From contig CAVRVY010000003.1 of the NCBI GenBank assembly GCA_963724765.1, forward strand, positions 512,001-576,000: a stretch of 64,000 bases of DNA, read 5' to 3'. Below, one piece after another: positions 4,851 to 17,212 of the stretch. The first letter of the stretch is position 1; every line of letters starts with the position of its first letter. Under the pieces are notes generated by a model. That model had not been told where the DNA came from, ran no database searches, and was given only the letters and a program-made list of their open reading frames with translations. The translations under genes and the position numbers were made by a program. Source of the DNA: an uncultured delta proteobacterium. GTDB lineage: Bacteria > Desulfobacterota > Binatia > Binatales > Binataceae.

Positions 4851-4962
4851 GCCTTATCCAGAGCGGCGGAGGGACTGGCCCGATGATGCCGCAGCAACCG
4901 GCCCACCAAGGGTGCTGGTGCTAACTCCAACGAAGCCCGAAATAGGCTTCGGTAGATAAGGC
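4851..4962 (+). ncRNA. SAM-I (S-box) riboswitch aptamer
   Basis: P1 gccttatc...gataaggc; conserved core ATCCAGAG-CGGCGGAGGGACTGGCCCGATGATGCCGCAGCAACC...GGTGCTAACTCC. Confidence 0.95.
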
Positions 4963-4975
4963 GAGAGTACTCGTA

Positions 4976-5011
4976 CCCTCGTCCTTATCCGGGAGGAGGG
5001 TTTTTTGTTTT
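4976..5011 (+). terminator. Intrinsic terminator of the riboswitch expression platform
   Basis: ccctc..tcc/gga.gaggg hairpin followed by TTTTTTGTTTT; the internal ccttatc can pair with the P1 3' strand gataagg (antiterminator). Confidence 0.85.
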
Positions 5012-5079
5012 ATTCCCCTCGCAGCGCCACCGGATGAAATGTCCCGGTTGAAACAACTGGGCCCGGGCGTGAGAACGAG

Positions 5080-5796
5080 TTGGGAAAACAGGCGATTCTA
5101 GTAGTCGGGATGGGAGGCCTGGGTGTGCCGGCCGCGTGCGCGCTCGCGCGCGGCGGAGCCGGGCGGATCGGCATCGTCGATCCCGACCCGGTCGAACTTT
5201 CCAATCTCGCGCGCCAGGTAATTTACGGCGCGGCGAGCCTCGGACGGCTCAAGGTCGAGGCGGCTGCGGTGCGGCTTATTGAAGATCATCCGGATCTCGT
5301 CATCGAGACTTACCCGGTCGCACTCGACGCCATCAACGCCGCCGAATTGATCGCACGCTACGATTTCGTGATCGACGCGACCGACGATCCCGCGGCCAAG
5401 TTTCTAATCAACGACACCTGCCTCGCGATGGGTCGGCCGTTCGTTTACGCCGGCGTGCTGGGGATGACCGGCCAGGCGATGACGGTAGTGCCGGGGCGCA
5501 CGGCGTGTCTGCGATGCCTGTTCGAGCAGCCGCCGGAGCCGGGCGAGATCGCGACCTGCCGTGAGGCGGGAATAATCGGACCGGTCGCGGCGGTGATTGG
5601 CGAGATCGAGGCGGCCGAGGCGTTGCGCTGGCTTGGCGGCGGCGTGCCGGAGCTGGCGGGAAAAATCCTGACCTATGACGGGACCGCGAGCGGGCGCATC
5701 CGCACGCTTGAAGTGAGCGCGCGCGCCGGATGCGTGTGCGGCGCAGCCCGGCGTGCAGAGAACGCGGCGGCGTGGGCGCCGGCGCGCAACCAGTAA
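5080..5796 (+). CDS. ThiF/MoeB/HesA-family adenylyltransferase (E1-like), intact catalytic motifs but no N-terminal RYSRQ helix
   Basis: VVGMGGLG, DPDPVELSNLARQ, DATD, CLRC...TCREAG, CVC; TTG start with an in-frame stop at 5035-5037. Confidence 0.9.
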   Translation: MGKQAILVVGMGGLGVPAACALARGGAGRIGIVDPDPVELSNLARQVIYGAASLGRLKVEAAAVRLIEDHPDLVIETYPVALDAINAAELIARYDFVIDATDDPAAKFLINDTCLAMGRPFVYAGVLGMTGQAMTVVPGRTACLRCLFEQPPEPGEIATCREAGIIGPVAAVIGEIEAAEALRWLGGGVPELAGKILTYDGTASGRIRTLEVSARAGCVCGAARRAENAAAWAPARNQ

Positions 5797-5809
5797 GAGG
5801 ATCTATGCG

Positions 5810-7072
5810 ATGAGCTACGTCACCAACCTCAAGTGCCGCGAGTGCGGCCAGGAATATCCGATCAAGCCGCTGCACGTATGCGAGGATTGCTTCGGCCCGC
5901 TCGAGGTTACTTACGATTACGCGAAGATTCGCGAGGCGATCTCGCGCGCGACGATCGCGGCACGCCCGCACAATCTCTGGCGCTATCGCGAGCTGCTGCC
6001 GGTCGACGGCGAACCCGAGGCGGGGCCGTTTTCGGGCTTCACGCCGCTGTTGCAGGCGCGTCGGCTTGGCGCCGAGCTGGGGCTCAAGAAGCTCTACATC
6101 AAGGACGACACGGTCAACCATCCTACGCTCTCATACAAGGACCGCGTGGTGTCGGTGGCGATCACCAAGGCGCGCGACTTCGGCTTCACCACGGTCTCGT
6201 GCGCCTCGACCGGCAATCTGGCGACCGCGGTCGCGGCGCATGCGGCGCGCGCGGGGCTTAAGTCGGTGATCTTCATGCCCGAGGGGGTCGAGTCGGGCAA
6301 AATCGTCGGCTCGTCGATTTACGGCGCGCGGGTGATCACGATTCGCGGCAACTACGACGACGTCAACCGGCTGTGCAGCGAGATCGCCGACAAGTACGGA
6401 TGGGCCTTCGTCAATATCAACCTGCGTCCCTACTACACCGAGGGCGCCAAGACCTTCGGCTTCGAGGTCGCCGAGCAACTCGGCTGGAAACTGCCCAACC
6501 ACATCGTGCTGCCGACCGCGGGCGGCACGATTTTGCCCAAGGTGGCCAAGGCCTTCAAGGAACTCAAGGAAGTCGGGCTGATTCATGGCGGCGAATTCAA
6601 GATTCATTGCGCGCAGGCGGCCGGGTCGGCGCCGGTCGTGCACGCGCTGCACAAGAACACCGACCTGATCACGCCGGTCAAGCCCGACACCATCGCCAAG
6701 TCAATCGCGATCGGCAACCCGGCCGACGGCTTCTACGTGTTGCGCGCGGTGCGCGAGTCGGGCGGATGGGGCGAGATGGCGAGCGACCCCGAGATCATCG
6801 ACGCGATCAAGCTGCTCGCGCGCACCGAGGGCATCTTCGCCGAGCCGGCCGGCGGCACCACGCTGGCCGTGACGCTGAAACTCATCGCCGCGGGGCGCAT
6901 CAAGGCCGATGAGAGCGTGGTAGTCTCGATTACCGGCAACGGTTACAAGACCCTGGAGGCGGTCGCCCGCAGTATCGAGCAGCCGCTGGTGATCGAAGCC
7001 CGGCTGAAGGACTTCGACGCAATCTACGAGAGTCTCGGCGACGGCAAACGCTCGCTCAAGGGCGCGGCCTGA
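5810..7072 (+). CDS. thrC: Threonine synthase-family PLP enzyme (by context possibly an O-phosphohomoserine sulfhydrylase, MetM-like)
   Basis: N-terminal CxxC..CxxC, NHPTLSYKDR (PLP Lys), CASTGN, IAIGNPADG, EGIFAEPAGG, ITGNGYK. Confidence 0.85.
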   Translation: MSYVTNLKCRECGQEYPIKPLHVCEDCFGPLEVTYDYAKIREAISRATIAARPHNLWRYRELLPVDGEPEAGPFSGFTPLLQARRLGAELGLKKLYIKDDTVNHPTLSYKDRVVSVAITKARDFGFTTVSCASTGNLATAVAAHAARAGLKSVIFMPEGVESGKIVGSSIYGARVITIRGNYDDVNRLCSEIADKYGWAFVNINLRPYYTEGAKTFGFEVAEQLGWKLPNHIVLPTAGGTILPKVAKAFKELKEVGLIHGGEFKIHCAQAAGSAPVVHALHKNTDLITPVKPDTIAKSIAIGNPADGFYVLRAVRESGGWGEMASDPEIIDAIKLLARTEGIFAEPAGGTTLAVTLKLIAAGRIKADESVVVSITGNGYKTLEAVARSIEQPLVIEARLKDFDAIYESLGDGKRSLKGAA

Positions 7073-7163
7073 CCGCGCGGCGCCGCGCTTGTAAAGCCAT
7101 GTGGCGAGGCATATTCATCAAACGCTAGTCTCTGGGCTAGTCTGAGAGGTGGAACTTTCGATC

Positions 7164-7442
7164 ATGCCAGTCAAGGTACGAGTACCGACCCCATTACGCA
7201 GGTTCACCGGGGGCATCGACGAGGTTGCGGCCGCGGGCGAATCGGTCCGCGCGGTTATCGAGGACCTCGAAAAGCGCCATCCGGGGATGCGCGAGCGGCT
7301 GCTCGACGACAAGGGCGAGCTGCGCCGCTTCGTCAATATTTATTTGAACGGCGACGACATCCGTTTCCTCAACCAGCTAAACTCACAGGTCAAGGATGGC
7401 GACGATATTTCAATCGTCCCAGCGATCGCCGGCGGCGAGTAA
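7164..7442 (+). CDS. MoaD/ThiS-family ubiquitin-like sulfur carrier, C-terminus AIAGG-E
   Basis: VRVPTPLR, LRRFVNIYLNGDDIRF, ISIVPAIAGGE*. Confidence 0.92.
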   Translation: MPVKVRVPTPLRRFTGGIDEVAAAGESVRAVIEDLEKRHPGMRERLLDDKGELRRFVNIYLNGDDIRFLNQLNSQVKDGDDISIVPAIAGGE

Positions 7443-8442
7443 CGAAGAATTCGTGCCGGCGGCGCGGGCGCACAGCGTGCTCGAGCTGATCGGCAACACG
7501 CCGCTGCTCGAAATCACGCGCGTGACCGAGGGGCTGCTGCGCCCCGGCGTGCGGATTTTCGCCAAGCTCGAGGGCTTCAACCCCGGCGGCTCGGTTAAGG
7601 ACCGCGCCGCGCGCCACATGATCGAGTTCGGGCTCAAGCGCGGTGAGTTGCGGCCGGGCAAGGTGATCATCGACTCGACTTCGGGCAACACCGGGATCGC
7701 GCTGGCGATGGTCGGCGCGGCAATTGGCTATCCGGTGGAAATCGTGATGGCCTCCAATGTCAGCCGCGAACGCAAGAAGATAATCGAGGCCTTTGGCGCC
7801 AAGCCGATCTACTCCGATCCGCTGGAGGGCTCCGACGGCGCGATCACGATGGCGCGCAAGATCATCGCCGACAACCCCGAGCACTATTTCAAACCCGACC
7901 AGTACAACAACGAGGCCAACGCGCTCGCCCATTTCGATACCACGGGGCCCGAAATCTGGCATCAGACGCGCGGCCGCGTCACTCATTTCGTGGCCGGAAT
8001 CGGCACTGGCGGCACCGTGATGGGCACCGGGCGCTACCTCAAGTCGCAAAATCCGACGGTCAAGGTGATCGCGGTGGAGCCGGACGACGCGATGCATGGG
8101 CTGGAGGGGCTCAAGCACATGGCCTCGTCGATCGTGCCGGGCATCTTTCACGCCGAAGAACTCGACGACCGCCTCGCGGTCAGCACCGAGGACGCCTACG
8201 AGATGGTTTACGCGCTGGGGCAGATCGAGGGTGTGCTGGTGGGACAATCGTGCGGAGCGGCGCTGGTGGCCGCGTTGCGGGTCGCGTGTGGGTTGCGCGA
8301 GGGATGCGTGGTGACCGTGTTTCCGGATTTCGGTGACAAGTACCTGTCCACCAATCTGTGGATCGGATGGGAACAGTGGCGCAAGGAGCGCCTGCTAAAG
8401 CTCGTCAGCAAATGGAACGCCTCCGCGAGCGCTACTACCTGA
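7396..8442 (+). CDS. Cysteine synthase family PLP enzyme (CysM/CysK-like); true start may be GTG 7453
   Basis: LIGNTPL, KLEGFNPGGSVKDR, STSGNTG, GIGTGGT, PDFGDKYLST. Confidence 0.9.
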   Translation: MATIFQSSQRSPAASNEEFVPAARAHSVLELIGNTPLLEITRVTEGLLRPGVRIFAKLEGFNPGGSVKDRAARHMIEFGLKRGELRPGKVIIDSTSGNTGIALAMVGAAIGYPVEIVMASNVSRERKKIIEAFGAKPIYSDPLEGSDGAITMARKIIADNPEHYFKPDQYNNEANALAHFDTTGPEIWHQTRGRVTHFVAGIGTGGTVMGTGRYLKSQNPTVKVIAVEPDDAMHGLEGLKHMASSIVPGIFHAEELDDRLAVSTEDAYEMVYALGQIEGVLVGQSCGAALVAALRVACGLREGCVVTVFPDFGDKYLSTNLWIGWEQWRKERLLKLVSKWNASASATT

Positions 8443-8657
8443 CCTACCCCAAGTCGCTCATCCGCGAGCCGCTGCTGTACCACCTGGTCAAGAAGTTCGA
8501 CCTGGTGTTCAACATTCGCGGCGCGAGCGTCTCGGAAGAGATGGGCCTGGTCGCGGTCGAGTTCGAGGGATCGAGCGAACAGATCGAGCGCGCACTCGCG
8601 TGGCTGCGCCAAAGCGGCGTCACGGTAGAGCCGATCGAAAAGAACGTAATCGAGTAG
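8412..8657 (+). CDS. Stand-alone NIL-domain protein
   Basis: LTYP....EPLLYHLVKKFDLVFNIRGASV....G.....EG....IERALAWL...GVTVE pattern; overlaps the upstream gene end. Confidence 0.8.
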   Translation: MERLRERYYLTYPKSLIREPLLYHLVKKFDLVFNIRGASVSEEMGLVAVEFEGSSEQIERALAWLRQSGVTVEPIEKNVIE

Positions 8658-8736
8658 TTGCGCGCTCAGGGCCCCGTGGCCATCTTACTTCGCGAAGCTC
8701 TTCGGCCCGGCGCGTATTCGCGGCGCTCGCCTGTAT

Positions 8737-9432
8737 ATGCCACTGACCGATAAGCAGATCGAACGCTACAGCCGCCAGATAATCGTCCCCGGCGTCGGCG
8801 GACTCGCACAGGACCGGCTGCTCGCGTCTCGCCTTGCGATCGTGGCCGCGCCTGCGGACGCAGCCGGCGCGCTTGCCTACCTGGCCGGCGCGGGAGTCGG
8901 GCGAATCGCGGTGCATCCGGTCGGCGACCGCGCGCGGTACCGCGCGCTGCTTGAGCGGATGGGCGACCTCAACCCTGATGTAAGCATCCGAATGGCGAAC
9001 GACGACTCATCCGAGGCATCCGACCTGATGCTGGCGCTGATCGGCGACCCACACGTGGCCGAAGCAGCGGCGCACGTCTGGCGTGCGCCGCGCGTCGATG
9101 CGCAAGACGCGCACGCGCATCGTTATGGCGCCGCTATCGTCGCGAGGCTCGATACGCCGGGACGAATCGCACTTCTGCCGGAGCCACCGCCCTGTCTGCT
9201 ATGCGCCGACGCGGATTTGCTGAGTCTGCCACGCGCGCGCGCTGCGAATACCGGCGCGATCGCGATGGTCGCGGTGACCGAGGCGTTCAAGCTGCTGGCC
9301 GGCTATGCCGGCCAGCAGCCGACCGCCCGGCTTATCGAGTTCGATGGCTATGTCAGTCGGGCGCGCGCGCTTGGGCGGCGCGTAAGCGGCGGCGGCGATA
9401 AAACGCGCTGCGCTTGCGAGGCGGCGTCTTGA
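8737..9432 (+). CDS. Degenerate ThiF/MoeB-family protein (pseudo-E1)
   Basis: LTDKQIERYSRQIIVPGVG..AQDRL, YLAGAGVGRI, LNPDV, PCLLC, EAFKLL, CAC; GxGxxG and SNLxRQ motifs absent. Confidence 0.8.
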   Translation: MPLTDKQIERYSRQIIVPGVGGLAQDRLLASRLAIVAAPADAAGALAYLAGAGVGRIAVHPVGDRARYRALLERMGDLNPDVSIRMANDDSSEASDLMLALIGDPHVAEAAAHVWRAPRVDAQDAHAHRYGAAIVARLDTPGRIALLPEPPPCLLCADADLLSLPRARAANTGAIAMVAVTEAFKLLAGYAGQQPTARLIEFDGYVSRARALGRRVSGGGDKTRCACEAAS

Positions 9433-10313
9433 GCGCCGCGCCGCGGCGCGATGCCACTGAAGCCGGCGCGACGCGCGGTCTCGGCGCGTCGCGCCGGCGC
9501 GTCGTCGCGGGACACGCGCTCTGGATGTTCGACTTCGACAACACGCTCGCGCCACTCGAGCCGGCCGTCGATTGGGCCGCGAGCCGGCGCGAGTTGCAAG
9601 CCTGGCTCGCCGCACAGGGCGTGGCCGAGGCGCTGTTCGAGGAATTTCCGGGCGGCAACCTGGTGCTGTACGAGGCGCTGCGCGCGCGTCTTTGCGAGGG
9701 CGGCGACGCCGCCCGCGCCGTGCTGGCGCGCGGCGAGTTGGCCGCCGCTAAAAGCGGCGGCCAACTCGCCGGCGACCCCGGCAGCCCCGGGAGGGGCGGC
9801 GGCCGCACGGCTGCCGCCCCTCCCGGGGCGATCCTCGGCGGCGCCTCGGCCATCATCGAGCGCCACGAACTCGCCGGCGTCGGCGCGGTCGCGCCCGCGC
9901 CCGGCGCGATCGAGCTGCTCCGCACGCTCCGCGCCGCGGGCGCCGCAGTCGCAGTCGTCACGTCGAATTCGTCGCGCACGGTCGCGGCGTGGCTGCGGGC
10001 ATGGCAGGCGAAGGAACTGGTGGACCTTGTAGTCGGCCGCGATAGCGGCCTTGCGCTGAAGCCGTCACCCGCGATGGTCGAGCGCGCGCTTGCCGCTTGC
10101 GCCGCTCGGCCCGGCGATGCCGCCTTTGCCGGCGACAGTGAGGCCGACCTCAACGCCGCCAGGGCCGCCGCGGTGCGCTTTTATGGCGTCAATGCCAAGC
10201 CCGAGGGGCGTGACCGGCTGACCGCGCTTGGCGCATCGCCGGTCTTCTCTTCGCCGTCCGCGATGGCGATCTATCTCGATCTGCCGATCATCGAGCGTGC
10301 ATCGACTGATTAG
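9429..10313 (+). CDS. HAD-superfamily hydrolase (phosphoglycolate phosphatase-like); start uncertain
   Basis: FDFDNTL motif I, VTSN, KPSP, GDSEAD. Confidence 0.8.
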   Translation: MSAAPRRDATEAGATRGLGASRRRVVAGHALWMFDFDNTLAPLEPAVDWAASRRELQAWLAAQGVAEALFEEFPGGNLVLYEALRARLCEGGDAARAVLARGELAAAKSGGQLAGDPGSPGRGGGRTAAAPPGAILGGASAIIERHELAGVGAVAPAPGAIELLRTLRAAGAAVAVVTSNSSRTVAAWLRAWQAKELVDLVVGRDSGLALKPSPAMVERALAACAARPGDAAFAGDSEADLNAARAAAVRFYGVNAKPEGRDRLTALGASPVFSSPSAMAIYLDLPIIERASTD

Positions 10314-10374: not shown

Positions 10375-10401
10375 TATCTTGAAGGAGTGTCATTCGGCAC
10401 G

Positions 10402-10947
10402 ATGAGTGACGGCTTTACTTTGTGGTTCACCGGCCTGTCCGGGGCGGGCAAGTCGACGTTGGCGGAGATGGCCGCCGAGGAATTGCGCCGGCGCGGATAC
10501 CGGGTCGAGGTTCTTGACGGCGACGAGGTGCGCACCAACCTCTCCAAGGGACTCGGGTTTTCCAAGGAGGACCGCGACACCAACATCCGGCGCATCGGGT
10601 ACGTCTGCAGGCTGCTCGCGCGCAACGGAGTGATCGCGATCGCGGCGGCGATCTCGCCCTACCGCAAAATCCGCGACGAGGTACGCAGCCTGCACGAGCG
10701 CTTCTTCGAGGCCTACGTCGAGTGCCCGCTCGACACGCTGGTCGAGCGCGACGTCAAGGGCCTGTACAAGAAGGCGCTGGCGGGCGAACTCAAGGGCTTC
10801 ACCGGCGTCTCCGATCCCTACGAGCCTCCGCTGAAGCATGAGTTGACGATCACCACCACCCGCGAAACACCGCAGGAGAGCCTCGCCCGGCTGCTCGGCA
10901 GCCTCGAGGCGTGCGGCTATATCAGCCGCGAGGGAGCGAAACGATGA
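10402..10947 (+). CDS. cysC: Adenylyl-sulfate kinase
   Basis: [45 protein letters not shown]. Confidence 0.95.
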
Positions 10948-12119
10948 GCGTCGGCGCAAGCGATTCGATAACTGCACACGGCGGCGGTGCGCTGGTCGAC
11001 CTTAACGCTCCCGCAGCGGAGCGCCGCGCAATTGCGCGCCACGCTGAAGGGCTCAAGACGGTTCGGCTGAGTGCGCGCGACCTGGCCGACCTGGAGATGC
11101 TGGCCTCGGGCGCCTTCTCGCCGCTTACAGGTTTCATGGGCGAGGCGGATTACGCGCGCTCGCGCGACGCGATGCGTCTGGCGTCGGGCGTGCCCTGGTC
11201 GATTCCGATCACGCTTGGAGTGGCTGAGGCCGAGGCGCGCGCGCTAAGGCCGGGCGAGGAGATAACGCTTGCCGATAATGATGGCGGCCGGCTGGCGATT
11301 ATGAAACTCGCCGAGGTTTACAGCGTCGATCGCGCGCGCGAGGCCGAGGCGATTTTCGGCACCGCCGACCCCGCCCATCCGGGAGCGGCCAACGTGCTCG
11401 CGACGCCGCCGTGGTGCCTGGGCGGAAGCGTGGTGCTGTTCAGTGAGATTCCCGGCCGGACCTTTGTGGAGTACCGGCTCGAGCCGCGTCAGACGCGCGC
11501 CGCGTTCGCCGAGCGCGGATGGCGCAAAATCGTCGCTTTTCAGACCCGCAACCCGACCCATCGCGCGCACGAATACATCCAAAAGGCGGCGCTGGAGATT
11601 TGTGACGGGCTGCTGCTTCATCCGTTGGTCGGCGAGACCAAGGGCGACGACGTCCCGGCTGCGGTGCGGATGGAGACCTATAAGGTGCTTCTGGAACTGT
11701 ACTATCCGCGCGAGCGCGCGATGCTGTCGGTGATGCCGGCACACATGCGCTACGGCGGACCGCGTGAGGCCATCCTGCACGCAATCATAAGGCGCAACTA
11801 CGGCTGCACCCATTTCATCGTCGGCCGCGATCACGCCGGTGTAGGCAATTACTACGGCACGTATGATGCGCAAAAGATTTTCGAGCGTTTCAGCCCGGCC
11901 GAAATCGGCATCACGCCGCTGACCTTCGAGAATACTTTCTACTGCAAGCGATGCGGCGGGATGGCGTCGTTCAAGACCTGCCCGCACGAGGACGCCGACC
12001 GGCTACTGCTATCGGGGACCAAGGTGCGCGAGATGCTGCGCCGCGGCGAGGCGCCGCCGCCCGAGTATACCCGTCCCGAGATAGCGGCCATCCTGGCGCG
12101 CGCGATGCGCGTGGGCTGA
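10944..12119 (+). CDS. sat: Sulfate adenylyltransferase (ATP sulfurylase)
   Basis: [49 protein letters not shown]. Confidence 0.95.
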
Positions 12120-13221: not shown

Positions 13222-15168
13222 CTATCCGCTGAAGGAAGCGGCGGGCGCGAGGCGGTCCAGATACGGGTTCTGGAACGACCTCCAGGCCTGCAGACGGAGC
13301 TTCTCGCGCTGCGTCAGTACCGCATAGGCGGGATCGGAACTGAGATTGTGATGCTCGTAGGGGTCGGTTGTCAGGTCGTAAAGTTCCGCGCGATCCAGAT
13401 TGAAGTCGTAGATGTATTTCATGTTCCCGTCGATCAGCCCCAATATGTAATTCCCATTGCCCGAGAACATGTAGACCCGCCGATCACGCGACTGAGTAAA
13501 AAGATTCGCACCCTGCCATTGCGCTGGCTCGCGCATGCCCAGCAGGCTCAGCAGGGTGGGCGCAATATCGATCTGACGGCCAGCGCCTTTCATCTCGCGC
13601 TCATGCGGGAATAGGCGCGGGTTGATGATGAGCAGCGGCACCTGCAGCTCTTCGTTGTAGACGGTGAAACCGTGTACGGTCTGACTGTGTTCGTCGAACG
13701 CCTCGCCATGATCGCCGGTTACCACCAACAAGGTATTGTCGGCGAGCCCCATTGTTTGCAGCCGCGCGGCCAATTCTCCGATCAGGGTGTCCATCGATCG
13801 CACCGCGTTCAGATAGCGGCCGAGATTGGGATCGCTCACTCCATAGTCCCGATCGTCAGCCGCGACGTAGGGGTGATGCGTATCCATGGTCCATAGAGAA
13901 AGCAAGAAGGGCTTCGACTTGTGCGCATTGATCCAGTCGATCGCGGCCGGCAGCAATGGCGTGTCCTGCGGCAGGCTCGAGTCGCGATGCTCTGCGGCGA
14001 CCGTCGCGAAACCATGACTGAGCAGGAACTCGGCGCGGCGATCTTCTCCGATCGAGCCCGAATCGAGAAATCCCGTGGCATAGCCGCGCTGCGCCAGTAA
14101 CGCCGGCAGTCCGGCTGCCGCGAGCTCCGGCCGCCAGCGCGGGACGGGAAACCATGCCAGCCGTGGATACAGCGAACAGAACAGCGCCGTCATCGCCGCG
14201 GAGGTATTGCCCTGCGCCGCGTATACGTGGTCGAAGAACGCGCTATGCGCCGCGAGCCGCTCGAGCTGGGGAGTATCGTGGTAAGGCGCACCGTAAAGGC
14301 CAAGGTCGCGCGTACCAACGGACTCCATCACGACCATCACCACGTTGAGCGCGCGCGACGGCCGGCGAGCCGGGCGTAACATCACCGGCGTCAGCGTGGG
14401 CGGGGCCGCGGGCCGCTCTCCAGCGGGCAGGAAGTCATCGAGGAACGCAGGCGGAATCGATACCGGGAGCTTGGGAAGGCGCTCGAACAGCGGAGACACA
14501 AATGCCCATTCCGCATTGAGGGCCGCCGGCGGATAGGAAAGATAACGCACGGCCCACGCGTGAGCGCCGACCACGTATACGCAGATCAGCGCAAGCGCCA
14601 GGGACGAATAGAATCTCTCCCGCGCGCGGCGCAGGAAATCGGGCGCCAGCCGCGAGAGACTCTCGGTGACCAGCACCAGCATCAAAATCCCGATCACCAC
14701 CCACAGGTACGGTCCGCAGCCTCCGAGAGCGTCAGGGATCGATCTTTCGATCATGCGTAAGTTGTCGGAAAGAACGAATAGCTTGTAGGTCGCGTCGGTA
14801 TGAATGTAGGAAAAGACCACTGTGTCGACGGAAGTATAAAGTACAAGCAACAGGACAAAGTACCAGACGGCGCGGGTGATGCTTCCGCGCAGGTACCGAT
14901 TGCGCGCGAGGGCGAGTAAACCGTACGAGACCCATCCCAGGACGGTCAGCGCCATAACGTCCTGGTACGCGAGCAGCGGAAGATAGGGCCACAGGTCGGA
15001 GCGCCAGACGCAGTAGACGATCTCGATCCGCTGCCTTGCCATCACGGCGGCCAGTCCGAGGAGCGCCGCGAACAGGAACTCGGAGTCGGTTACGCGGCGC
15101 GGCGTGAGAGAGAATTGATCTGCCGAAAGACGGGGACCAGTAAACGGCATTCGAGTGGATGATTCCAT
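13222..15168 (-). CDS. Membrane-anchored sulfatase/LTA-synthase-family protein
   Basis: Several N-terminal TM helices; NVVMVVMES, THHPY, TGDHGEAF, VPLLI, QIDIAPT, ELYDL..DP.E. Confidence 0.85.
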   Translation of the reverse strand: MESSTRMPFTGPRLSADQFSLTPRRVTDSEFLFAALLGLAAVMARQRIEIVYCVWRSDLWPYLPLLAYQDVMALTVLGWVSYGLLALARNRYLRGSITRAVWYFVLLLVLYTSVDTVVFSYIHTDATYKLFVLSDNLRMIERSIPDALGGCGPYLWVVIGILMLVLVTESLSRLAPDFLRRARERFYSSLALALICVYVVGAHAWAVRYLSYPPAALNAEWAFVSPLFERLPKLPVSIPPAFLDDFLPAGERPAAPPTLTPVMLRPARRPSRALNVVMVVMESVGTRDLGLYGAPYHDTPQLERLAAHSAFFDHVYAAQGNTSAAMTALFCSLYPRLAWFPVPRWRPELAAAGLPALLAQRGYATGFLDSGSIGEDRRAEFLLSHGFATVAAEHRDSSLPQDTPLLPAAIDWINAHKSKPFLLSLWTMDTHHPYVAADDRDYGVSDPNLGRYLNAVRSMDTLIGELAARLQTMGLADNTLLVVTGDHGEAFDEHSQTVHGFTVYNEELQVPLLIINPRLFPHEREMKGAGRQIDIAPTLLSLLGMREPAQWQGANLFTQSRDRRVYMFSGNGNYILGLIDGNMKYIYDFNLDRAELYDLTTDPYEHHNLSSDPAYAVLTQREKLRLQAWRSFQNPYLDRLAPAASFSG

Positions 15169-15307: not shown

Positions 15308-17212
15308 TTAATGAGCGGAATTAGCAGCAGGACTTTCGAAGCGGGCCAGGTAACGATTCTGGAATGACACCCAGGCCTCCAGGCGAAGGTGCGCCCGCTG
15401 CATCAGCGCCGCGTACGTACTGTCGGAGGCGAGGTTCCTGGTTTCGCCGGGATCGGTCACCACGTTGTAGAGTTGCGCGCGACCGCGTTGAAAATCGTAA
15501 ATGTATTTGAAATCGCCCTCGACCAATCCGAATGTAAAATTCCCGGTGCCTGCGAAAAGGTAGGCGCGCGCGGGCGGCTTAGCGCCGAGCAGGTCAGCGC
15601 CCTGCCAAGTGCCGGGAGCGTTGAAGCCCAGCAGCGCCAACAGAGTCGGCGCGATGTCTATCTGGCGGACGATACGCTTGACCGTCACTTCGTGCGGGAA
15701 GAGCGTCGGATTCACGATCAGCAACGGCACCTGCACTTCCTCGTTGTAGACGGTTCCGCCGTGGATCAGTTGGCCGTGCTCGCCGAACGCCTCGCCGTGA
15801 TCGCCGGTAATCACCAGCAGCGTGCGGTCCGCCAGCCCCATGCTCTGCAATGCCGCGGCGAGTTCTCCAACGATGGCGTCGGTTGCGTGCACCGCGTTGA
15901 GATAGCGATTTTGGTACGCGTCGCGGACGCCGTAGTCGCGATGCTCGGCCGCCAGGTACGGATGATGCGTATCCTGCGTCCAGATCGCTAAAAAGAATGG
16001 CCGCGAAGGATCGGCCTCAATCCAGCTCAGTGCCTGCGCCTTCAGATCAGCGTCGGCGGGCGCGTCATAGTCGCGCGCTTTGTCGATCACCTGACCGAAT
16101 CCGCGGCTGCGCACGAATTCGCCCTGGCGATCGAATACGAGCTGGCCCGAATGCATGAATGCGGTACGGTAGCCCTTGCTCGACAAAACCGCCGGCAGCC
16201 CCGGAATCGCCAGCGCCGGCGCGAGCTGGGTCAAACTCGGCCAGTCGTGATCCGGATAGACCGAGGCGAAGAGCGCTCCCAGGGCGGCCGAGGTCTCGGC
16301 CTCCGCCACGTAAGCCCGGTTGAAAACGAGCGCGTGGCGGGCTAACTCGACCAGGTTGGGCGTATCGTCAAACGGTGCTCCGTAGAGCCCAAGCCGACGC
16401 GCACCGACAGATTCCATCACCACCATCAGAACGTTAAGCGGTCCGTGCGACGCCGTCGCCTCGAACCCCGCGCCCACCAGCGGCCCCGCCCCGGACGCGG
16501 GACGCATCCCCGGGGGCTGAAAATCCGCGAGATAACCGGCAGGGATGGCGTCAGTCACTACCGGCGTGTGGAGTTCGAACGCCGACGACATCAGGGTCCA
16601 CTGCGGATTGAAGGACGCCAGTGAAAAGGGCACGTGACGAACGGCCCAGCTATGCGCGCCGACGAGAAAGATCGCGGTGAGCAGGAGGCCGGCGGCGGAG
16701 TGGAAGCCGTGGCGCAATCGTCGCACGGCGCCGGGCGCGAAACGCTCAAGACCCATCGCGATCAGCACGGTGTACACGGGGGCCATCGCCACCGCCGCTA
16801 TCAGGGCGGGTGTCGCGACCGCGTCAATCGACGATTGGATGCCGCGCAGGTTATCGGCGGCCGCGATCAGGCCAAAGGTCAGCGGCCTTCGGATGACGAG
16901 ATAGATGATGGTGCTCAGATAGGTATATAGCGCGAGCACCAGACAGATGGTCCATCCGGCGATCGCGACCAACCGCCGCGCCCGCGACCGTTTGGCGATA
17001 GCGAAGAGTCCGTAAAAGAGCCAGGCGATGGCCGCCAGCAGGAAAAGATCCTGGCAGGTCGCGAGCGGCAGCAGCGCGATCAATCGCCACGAGAGAAGCG
17101 TATGAAGACTTCTGAGCGGGGTGACTATCGTCACGATCGCGAGCGCGATGAAGCCGGCGAACAGGCATTCGGCGCTGTCGCCCCGCGGTCGCGCGGGCGC
17201 ATCAGCCAGCAT
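15308..17212 (-). CDS. Membrane-anchored sulfatase/LTA-synthase-family protein (paralogue)
   Basis: TM helices; NVLMVVMES, THHPY, TGDHGEAFGEHG, QIDIAPT. Confidence 0.85.
   Translation of the reverse strand: MLADAPARPRGDSAECLFAGFIALAIVTIVTPLRSLHTLLSWRLIALLPLATCQDLFLLAAIAWLFYGLFAIAKRSRARRLVAIAGWTICLVLALYTYLSTIIYLVIRRPLTFGLIAAADNLRGIQSSIDAVATPALIAAVAMAPVYTVLIAMGLERFAPGAVRRLRHGFHSAAGLLLTAIFLVGAHSWAVRHVPFSLASFNPQWTLMSSAFELHTPVVTDAIPAGYLADFQPPGMRPASGAGPLVGAGFEATASHGPLNVLMVVMESVGARRLGLYGAPFDDTPNLVELARHALVFNRAYVAEAETSAALGALFASVYPDHDWPSLTQLAPALAIPGLPAVLSSKGYRTAFMHSGQLVFDRQGEFVRSRGFGQVIDKARDYDAPADADLKAQALSWIEADPSRPFFLAIWTQDTHHPYLAAEHRDYGVRDAYQNRYLNAVHATDAIVGELAAALQSMGLADRTLLVITGDHGEAFGEHGQLIHGGTVYNEEVQVPLLIVNPTLFPHEVTVKRIVRQIDIAPTLLALLGFNAPGTWQGADLLGAKPPARAYLFAGTGNFTFGLVEGDFKYIYDFQRGRAQLYNVVTDPGETRNLASDSTYAALMQRAHLRLEAWVSFQNRYLARFESPAANSAH

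Follow-up and report, generated by a model that had tools for sequence, protein, structure and literature searches.

A sulfur-metabolism operon of an uncultured delta proteobacterium of the class Binatia encodes two proteins of the ThiF/MoeB family, here called ThiF-1 and ThiF-2, whose defects are complementary: ThiF-1 keeps the adenylation motifs and lacks the N-terminal arginine helix, and ThiF-2 has lost the catalytic motifs and keeps that helix. We consider it fairly probable (about 0.65) that the two are diverged copies of one duplicated operon gene for an E1 (ubiquitin-activating-type) enzyme, and that they form a heterodimeric adenylyltransferase with a single active site. The operon lies on the + strand of a stretch of 64,000 nucleotides (nt) (the window; positions 512,001 to 576,000 of contig CAVRVY010000003.1, assembly GCA_963724765.1), the closest public proteins of which are labelled Candidatus Binataceae. 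It consists, in order, of a SAM-I (S-adenosylmethionine, SAM) riboswitch, a terminator, ThiF-1, a ThrC-like enzyme, a sulfur carrier, a CysM-like enzyme, a NIL-domain protein, ThiF-2, a HAD-family phosphatase, CysC and Sat. A first-pass annotation, made from the letters of the window, had proposed that an active subunit and a pseudo-enzyme pair up as a one-active-site E1 for the carrier of this operon, and the comparative and predicted-structure data described below support that proposal.

The ThiF-1 gene (5080-5796, + strand, 238 amino acids (aa)) matches Pfam ThiF (PF00899) with 212.2 bits over profile positions 20-234 of 238. Its product carries the GMGGLG loop, DPDPVELSNLARQ, IDATDD, the cysteine pairs CLRC and CVC, and TCREAG. 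Among structures in the PDB, MoeB and ThiF of Escherichia coli (1jw9, 1zud) are matched at E 2.3e-40 and 6.1e-35, and in the PDB alignments residue 5 of ThiF-1 falls on residue 30 of E. coli ThiF and on residue 33 of MoeB, so that about 28 N-terminal residues are missing. An in-frame TGA at 5035-5037 is followed by just 14 codons before the TTG start of ThiF-1, among which there is neither a start codon (ATG, GTG or TTG) nor an RYxRQ motif. With this stop, and with the end of the riboswitch terminator at about 5011, no space is left for the missing helix. The motif set, the missing helix and the stop at 5035 were all found where the first-pass annotation had placed them. In an alignment of 46 relatives, G12, G13, G15, D34, D36, S41, N42, L43, R45, Q46, K58, D99, T101 and D102 are invariant, as are the cysteines C143, C146, C160, C218 and C220. 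Judged by its motifs, ThiF-1 possesses the nucleotide-binding and catalytic elements of a competent MoeB or ThiF, namely the glycine loop, the DxD, the SNLxRQ arginine, the lysine and the DxTD aspartate. The ratio of nonsynonymous to synonymous substitution rates (dN/dS, Nei-Gojobori) of ThiF-1 is 0.17-0.40 in nine pairs; two further pairs, which showed an in-frame stop in the coordinates used, are not counted.

ThiF-2 (8737-9432, + strand, 231 aa) scores 31.6 bits against the Pfam ThiF profile (cut-off 28.1), with the match confined to profile positions 1-49. The NCBIfam MoeB model is matched at positions 4-61, and no family other than ThiF/MoeB was matched in the Pfam and NCBIfam scans. When ThiF-2 is compared with the two full-length paralogues of the same genome, AAPADAA replaces GAGGLG, and the DxDxVxxSNLxRQ block is deleted. 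There is no cysteine between CLLC and CAC, so the crossover-loop cysteine is lost as well. The N-terminal helix region is complete, and by alignment offsets R13 of ThiF-2 corresponds to residue 14 of MoeB and residue 11 of E. coli ThiF. These observations confirm the earlier description of ThiF-2 as a protein in which the RYSRQ N-terminus and the zinc cysteines persist and from which the glycine loop, the SNLxRQ segment and the loop cysteine are gone.

The same pattern extends to the relatives of the two proteins. Among the best 120 relatives of each, RY.RQ occurs in the first 60 residues of 0/120 ThiF-1 relatives versus 117/120 ThiF-2 relatives, a complementary distribution beyond chance, and RYxRQ was not present in the upstream open frame of any ThiF-1 orthologue examined. 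Fifty diverse relatives of ThiF-2 share L3, Q7, I8, R10, Y11, S12, R13, Q14, I15, G21, Q25 and L28 without exception, and C153, C156 and C225 are also invariant in this alignment. In 117 sequences the mean column identity is 0.86 for residues 1-20 versus 0.47-0.57 for residues 81-140, with the most conserved stretch at the N-terminus (first 20-30 residues). The family is not small: 612 of the scored candidates matched ThiF-2 at E<=1e-3, the best 120 of them at 45-100% identity, and when 1.84 billion cluster representatives (from a library clustered at 50% identity) were searched with a profile, 101 of them scored at E<=1e-30. Among 119 representatives of at least 190 aa, the N-terminal Y.RQ is present in 111, GxGxxG is at the expected place in 2, and [ST]N[LIVM]xRQ is present in none. 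The clusters nearest to ThiF-2 in the ESM Atlas are mostly Candidatus Binatota; the third-ranked cluster (79 members) is labelled mostly Myxococcota, so the family may extend past Binatia, or the label may reflect old taxonomy of metagenome-assembled genomes (MAGs).

ThiF-2 is under purifying selection, with a dN/dS of 0.16-0.57 in 11 pairs (Nei-Gojobori), as the proposal of a functional second subunit had called for. Taken together, the conservation, the motif loss and the dN/dS values identify ThiF-2 as a conserved pseudo-enzyme that has best preserved the very piece absent from ThiF-1. In addition, an AlphaFold2 (AF2) model of ThiF-2 is confident, with a predicted local distance difference test score (pLDDT) of 88.1 and a predicted template modelling score (pTM) of 0.86, and its best fold matches in the PDB are E. 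coli ThiF (template modelling score (TM) 0.68), Uba4 and MoeB (TM 0.64). Therefore, ThiF-2 is a real ThiF-fold protein and not a chance match.

The two genes are tightly linked. ThiF-1 is in the same cluster at 18 of 19 loci that had been chosen via a ThiF-2 match (13 in the same family and six in other families of the class), and the contig of the 19th ends inside the ThrC-like gene. In genus g3 (loci L040, L042 and L043) ThiF-1 and ThiF-2 are directly adjacent and are followed by HAD, CysC and Sat. Among the best 80 of 513 confirmed stretches from named MAGs, all of them Binataceae, Binatus or "delta proteobacterium", ThiF-1 is present in 66; ten of the other 14 are cut upstream by contig ends, and the remaining four genomes all carry a ThiF-1 orthologue elsewhere (59-65% identity), once about 930 kb away on the same contig.

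Comparison of a class-wide ThiF-1 search with the ThiF-2 search showed that in some families both queries hit one and the same gene, and 22 further loci were included. Binatia can be read as a natural experiment, in which the ThiF gene at the head of the operon is compared with the presence and state of a second ThiF gene in the position of ThiF-2 (the tail). Among 37 operon-head ThiFs, 24 are helix-less and each of these is accompanied by a degenerate tail ThiF-2 (24/24); the other 13 bear the helix, and none of them is accompanied by a degenerate tail (0/13), since 11 are without any tail and two carry a second copy that is intact. Such a perfect association between the defects, along with the conserved synteny, is what the first-pass annotation had expected if the genes function together. 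An absent, frameshifted or neutrally evolving ThiF-2 beside a truncated ThiF-1, which it had regarded as contrary evidence, was not encountered in these genomes, the tail frame being intact in 24/24. The tally leaves out four loci in which no CysM hit was available to orient the operon (L040, L042, L043 and L145) and one without a head on its contig (L049). Inspected by eye, L040, L042 and L043 follow the same pattern, a helix-less head standing beside a tail; L145 has a full-length head, and its contig stops before the tail position.

In families f3, f14 and f16 (12 loci) the head is full length, with a ThiF-2-like N-terminal helix and all catalytic motifs, and no tail ThiF was found at the 11 loci that reach far enough downstream. 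In the genomes of these families the ThiF-2 query matched only the head itself and MoeZ-like genes. A helix-less head together with a degenerate, helix-keeping tail is found in f1, f2, f4, f5, f7, f8, f10, f11, f12, f13, f15, f17 and f18; f9 is represented by the single locus L049, which has a degenerate tail on a contig that stops before the head position. In several families the tail is shortened, to 120 aa in f17 (L161, 6494-6667 region), 153 in f15 (L160), 161 in f12 (L158), 163 in f4 (L162) and 179 in f13 (L159). Retained in these short tails are the N-terminal helices, the first strand-helix-strand and a C-terminal helix, which aligns, tentatively given its Ala-rich sequence, with about residues 174-190 of ThiF-2. 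This helix of ThiF-2 is the best-predicted interface helix in the complex model described below. Family f6 is mixed. In its genomes G005 (L157) and G108 (L165) both head and tail are full length, and the tail has the complete motif set. In G076 (L164) the head lacks RYxRQ, and the tail keeps the helix and the glycine loop and has SNL changed to TAL; by its motifs, this tail appears to be beginning to degenerate and to represent a transitional state.

A gene tree of 61 rows, which excludes five tails of less than 190 aa, was reconstructed by a quick IQ-TREE search under LG+C20 and rooted on the MoeZ-like paralogues of the genome itself. The heads form one clade (Shimodaira-Hasegawa-like approximate likelihood ratio test (SH-aLRT) 98) and the tails another (99), in which the intact f6 tails take a basal position, a topology that fits a single duplication. 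Within the heads, the full-length proteins of f3, f14 and f16 form a clade (97) that is sister to all other heads (89), and the helix-less head of G076 is the sister of the helix-bearing head of G108 (95). It is a tempting, if somewhat doubtful, idea that Binatia keep the whole route from a symmetric MoeB-type homodimer to an asymmetric one-active-site heterodimer, and that this route was taken at least three times in parallel. Along such a route, a single full-length E1 (f3, f14, f16) would first have been duplicated without damage to either copy (f6: G005, G108). The head would then have lost its arginine-finger helix, the site of the tail would no longer have been completed in trans, and decay would have started there (f6: G076). 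Full pseudo-enzyme tails (f1 and most families) would have followed, and finally tails of which only a helix donor of 120 aa with the interface helix is left (f17). This order of events is a reading and not a result.

Whether the two proteins can be modelled together was addressed by a complex prediction with ThiF-1 (46-row alignment), ThiF-2 (50-row alignment) and a riding ATP. The pair score was 0.92 in three runs, compared with 0.00 for the best of three controls; in the calibration of this score, 58 of 80 solved complexes attained the mark, as did 2 of 110 mismatched pairs. At least 97% of contacts are shared between the runs, the partner pLDDT is at least 83, and the pLDDT of ThiF-1 in the complex is 90. 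The confident interface is formed by residues 6, 9-14, 16-18 and 20 of ThiF-2, which make up the RYSRQ helix, and residues 40-41, 43-45, 47 and 49-52 of ThiF-1, which make up the SNLARQ phosphate-binding segment; the contacts of lowest error connect ThiF-1 167-176 with ThiF-2 174-184. Residues 9-14 of ThiF-2 are thus predicted to face residues 40-52 of ThiF-1; the score does not cover the ATP itself, which R13 may contact. The predicted geometry is that expected from the MoeB and ThiF homodimers. In the model, then, the RYSRQ helix of ThiF-2 reaches the SNLARQ segment of ThiF-1 in a confident heterodimer, as had been anticipated.

The operon begins with an E1-like gene under riboswitch control and carries genes for cysteine synthesis, sulfate activation and methionine-related functions. 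The SAM-I riboswitch aptamer at its head (4851-4962, + strand) matches Rfam RF00162 over the full model (1-108) with 94 bits (gathering threshold 44.4). The expression platform is an intrinsic terminator (4975-5011, +), with a hairpin at 4975-5001 (-16.9 kcal/mol, z-score -3.68) followed by the U-run UUUUUUGUUUU, and folding also revealed an alternative pairing with the 3' side of P1. A simple consensus scan of the + strand for promoters and terminators found no promoter and also missed the riboswitch terminator, which was revealed by folding. Downstream of ThiF-1, and likewise on the + strand, lies a ThrC-like enzyme (5807-7072) of the pyridoxal phosphate (PLP)-dependent type, with 242 bits to PALP and 328 bits to the NCBIfam threonine synthase model NF006050; its N-terminus bears a zinc-ribbon-like motif, a short Cys-rich Pfam match. 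By analogy, this enzyme is a candidate for a homocysteine synthase that depends on the carrier thiocarboxylate (MetM-like). It is followed by a ThiS/MoaD/SAMP1-like sulfur carrier (7149-7442, +; Pfam ThiS 59.2 bits, NCBIfam SAMP1 63.4 against a cut-off of 60) that ends in GGE. The CysM-like cysteine synthase (7396-8442, +) has 234.8 bits to PALP and 368.5 bits to TIGR01138 cysM, which is under the 394 cut-off of that model, and the small NIL-domain protein (8358-8657, +) has 59.2 bits to Pfam NIL. The listed open reading frames (ORFs) overlap, carrier and CysM by 47 nt and CysM and NIL by 85 nt, and the true starts of CysM and NIL are probably downstream of the longest-ORF starts. For NIL, a start later than 8358 is the probable one because relatives align only from residue 13-25 on. 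A stand-alone NIL-domain protein is kept between CysM and ThiF-2 in most relatives; in the available text of PMC5764234, NIL/ferredoxin proteins are tied to a different homocysteine route, in Desulfovibrio and methanogens.

After ThiF-2 come the HAD-family phosphatase (9414-10313, +; HAD_2 68.2 bits), the adenylylsulfate kinase CysC (10387-10947, +; Pfam APS_kinase 203.5 bits) and the sulfate adenylyltransferase Sat (10911-12119, +; Pfam ATP-sulfurylase 326.4 bits, PUA_2 164.8 bits). The first 19 nt of the phosphatase gene are shared with the end of ThiF-2, and HAD follows ThiF-2 in most related loci. The phosphatase has a weak NCBIfam match, below the cut-off, to the HAD pyrophosphatase PpaX, and one may speculate that it clears the pyrophosphate released by the E1 and by ATP sulfurylase. 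Two in-frame metagenomic ThiF-2::HAD fusions were found, P0331 (447 aa) and P0384 (507 aa). When longer proteins were searched for fused ThiF-2, the single hit at E<=1e-15 was of the ThiF-2::HAD type; a fusion of ThiF-2 with ThiF-1 did not appear in this search, which is weak evidence. Downstream of the operon, the - strand carries two neighbouring paralogous ORFs (13222-15168 and 15308-17212), each about 640 aa long and hydrophobic in its N-terminal half.

The genome contains a second, canonical cluster on another contig (L055 3616-9491, contig C1 of G000), in which a PALP gene is followed by a JAB/Mec-like protease, a ThiS-like protein, a ThiF with rhodanese (390 aa), a further PALP and a hexapeptide transferase. 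On contig C2 (L056), a gene for a rhodanese+ThiF protein of 409 aa adjoins thiC. Metatranscriptome data from four RNA runs held only 5-7% of the sampled words. The contigs assembled from them, mostly 88-95% alike and hence derived from relatives, map to the genes for the ThrC-like enzyme, the carrier and CysM and hardly at all to ThiF-2; they are uninformative on the expression of ThiF-2, since the ThiF-2 genes of relatives are too diverged to align at 88-95% likeness.

The proposed mechanism may be outlined as follows. ThiF-1 would be the sole catalytic subunit, which binds ATP and the ThiS-like carrier and adenylates the C-terminus of the carrier. ThiF-2, unable to bind ATP, would take the position of the second subunit of the ancestral homodimer and lay its N-terminal helix, with R13 as the equivalent of Arg14 of MoeB, in trans on the phosphate-binding segment of ThiF-1; each dimer would have a single active site. 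The carrier ends in GGE, so one residue would have to be trimmed before adenylation. A JAB protease is not encoded in the riboswitch operon, and within the genome JAB and ThiF+rhodanese genes were found only in the cluster on the other contig. The carrier adenylate would then be converted to a thiocarboxylate, for which the sulfur may possibly come from sulfide of the sulfate-assimilation branch of the operon or via the invariant C160 of ThiF-1. By analogy with CysO/CysM and MetM/MetO, the thiocarboxylate might feed the CysM-like enzyme to give cysteine and the ThrC-like enzyme to give homocysteine. SAM would shut off the whole operon, and such control fits a role in methionine supply.

Several points weigh against this interpretation. 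Neither ThiF-1 nor ThiF-2 has a rhodanese domain that would supply the sulfur, and the canonical JAB - ThiS - ThiF+rhodanese cluster of the genome could in principle serve this carrier. The two rare ThiF-2::HAD fusions hint that ThiF-2 may also, or instead, partner the HAD phosphatase. The heterodimer comes from a single structure prediction, and as its geometry equals that of the MoeB and ThiF homodimers, its pass may be partly remembered from solved structures; the calibration of the score covered neither custom alignments nor a small molecule. The prediction indicates that the pair can be modelled as such a dimer, and has no bearing on whether this dimer is preferred over a ThiF-1 homodimer. 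The perfect co-variation amounts to a minimum of three changes per trait and two to three independent pairs, all agreeing, which are too few for significance (sign test p = 0.5). Moreover, the tails sit on long branches, many forks are unsupported, and the tree search was a quick one. Finally, the arginine finger is not indispensable in known enzymes: according to the cited text of PMC13139853, Arg14 of MoeB and Arg11 of ThiF act in trans and are yet non-essential, and E. coli TcdA is without an arginine finger. Likewise, the portion of PMC6031683 drawn on here describes APPBP1 Arg15 as one of 15 ATP-contacting residues and reports that the R15A mutation merely slows NEDD8 activation. It was claimed at the outset that neither protein works alone; because the finger is non-essential in MoeB and ThiF and absent in TcdA, and because APPBP1 R15A only slows the reaction, that claim is unsupported in this form. 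An obligate mutual dependence does not follow from the missing helix, and ThiF-1 might act as a homodimer.

The alternatives to a heterodimer differ in what they make of ThiF-2. If ThiF-1, which keeps all catalytic motifs, worked alone as a fingerless homodimer in the manner of TcdA, ThiF-2 would be a non-catalytic protein, for example an adaptor for the HAD, carrier or PLP enzymes. The dispensable fingers just mentioned are in line with this, as is the association of ThiF-2 with HAD, which overlaps it in the window, adjoins it in most loci and is fused to it in P0331 and P0384. We regard this explanation as unlikely, yet it deserves to be taken seriously. It leaves unexplained why conservation in ThiF-2 peaks in the very helix that is missing from ThiF-1, why degenerate tails occur only beside helix-less heads, and why even the minimal 120-aa tails retain the helix. 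The prediction, too, speaks against it, in setting this helix on the phosphate-binding segment of ThiF-1.

A functionless ThiF-2, that is, a decaying duplicate held in place by operon inertia, seems very improbable. ThiF-2 does evolve faster than ThiF-1 (67% versus 86% identity to a relative of the same genus), has lost its catalytic motifs and is shortened to 120-179 aa in some families. Against decay stand the intact frame in all 24 genomes with a helix-less head, the dN/dS of 0.16-0.57, the N-terminus that is invariant over 50 sequences, the 101 representatives from the library clustered at 50% identity and the confident fold model; the selection data already largely refute it. It is also improbable, if less so, that ThiF-2 is some other enzyme or a sulfur-relay component, acting for instance through its CxxC pairs, and not a partner of ThiF-1. 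Its three invariant cysteines would suit such a role in an operon that, without rhodanese, leaves the sulfur-transfer step without a gene. These cysteines are, however, those of the structural zinc site of ThiF and MoeB, and they are missing from the L039 tail and from all short tails; in addition, ThiF-2 matches no other family, and its best folds are ThiF, Uba4 and MoeB.

Among known systems, those closest to the proposed heterodimer of ThiF-1 and ThiF-2 include the eukaryotic heterodimers NAE1(APPBP1)-UBA3 and SAE1(Aos1)-UBA2, which likewise consist of two paralogous subunits with a MoeB-like adenylation fold, only one of which has an ATP site. In NAE1-UBA3 the inactive subunit gives one N-terminal arginine to the active site, a part that R13 of ThiF-2 may play in the Binatia pair. 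SAE1 also donates an arginine to the site of UBA2. In contrast to the eukaryotic enzymes, the Binatia pair lacks a catalytic-cysteine domain, a ubiquitin-fold domain and a ubiquitin-conjugating enzyme (E2), and it belongs to a sulfur-carrier pathway, not to conjugation: neither ThiF has a domain beyond ThiF, and no E2-like gene is present in the operon. The pair is thus E1-like at the adenylation step and is not a canonical member of the E1 family, and it appears to have arisen independently of the eukaryotic E1s, through an operon duplication inside one bacterial class.

With the E. coli MoeB and ThiF homodimers (PDB 1jw9, 1zud) the Binatia proteins share the fold and the motifs, and both E. 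coli enzymes use an N-terminal arginine in trans. The E. coli enzymes are symmetric with two active sites, whereas in Binatia the required elements are split over two polypeptides. In a 2025 review, MoeB and ThiF are presented as homodimers that contain two active sites, and a review of ribosomally synthesized and post-translationally modified peptides (RiPPs) names only homodimeric ThiF-like enzymes. As far as the cited text of PMC13139853 goes, the yeast tRNA ct6A dehydratase Tcd1-Tcd2 is a ThiF-family heterodimer with one active site, to which the inactive partner gives the finger. It differs in being eukaryotic, in acting on tRNA and in that both subunits keep the N-terminal region (PMC13139853, same text). 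The defect of Tcd1, as presented there, is a single missing ATP-binding arginine, whereas ThiF-2 lost whole motifs and ThiF-1 also lost its own helix. In bacteria, BilD of the Bil antiviral operons is, by the available text of its preprint (10.1101/2023.09.26.559546), an E1 with an inactive and an active adenylation domain in a pseudo-dimer. According to the same text, BilD consists of one fused polypeptide, includes a CYS domain and acts in defence together with an E2, whereas the Binatia pair is encoded by two genes of primary sulfur metabolism; all other known bacterial E1-like proteins are described in that text as homodimers, with MoeB and Cap2 named. As for the pathway, a GapMind preprint, in the part cited here and with reference to Hasebe 2024, describes the carrier-thiocarboxylate routes Mec-CysO-CysM-MoeZ, for cysteine, and MetM-MetO of Streptomyces, for homocysteine. 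In these, as in Binatia, a ThiS-like carrier and CysM-like and ThrC-like enzymes are clustered with an E1. By that account their E1 is MoeZ, a full-length ThiF with rhodanese, whereas the Binatia operon has a split, rhodanese-less pair together with NIL, HAD, CysC and Sat. The first-pass annotation had known of no such arrangement in a bacterial sulfur-relay E1. This stands in so far as a full-text search, outside of which most subscription journals lay, returned no publication on a two-gene heterodimeric E1 of the ThiF/MoeB type in a bacterial sulfur-carrier pathway. The broader principle is not new, as BilD (fused) and Tcd1-Tcd2 are already published.

In public databases ThiF-2 is labelled "hypothetical" or "adenylyltransferase", and it should not be counted as an active E1. 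Pathway tools that expect MoeZ in carrier-dependent synthesis of cysteine or homocysteine would miss this variant. The asymmetric E1s of eukaryotes are derived in textbooks from symmetric MoeB/ThiF-like homodimers, and to our knowledge no intermediates are known. The operon described here would place a two-gene, one-active-site E1 inside ordinary bacterial sulfur metabolism, with relatives that hold ancestral, duplicated-intact and transitional states. Being small, soluble-looking and easy to express, the pair would let the contribution of the finger and the minimal size of a pseudo-subunit be tested, and it would let one ask if the loss of the helix in one copy makes the site of the partner dispensable. 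If the stepwise route outlined above is real, Binatia would offer a bacterial and tractable replay of the origin of eukaryotic E1 asymmetry through duplication and complementary degeneration.

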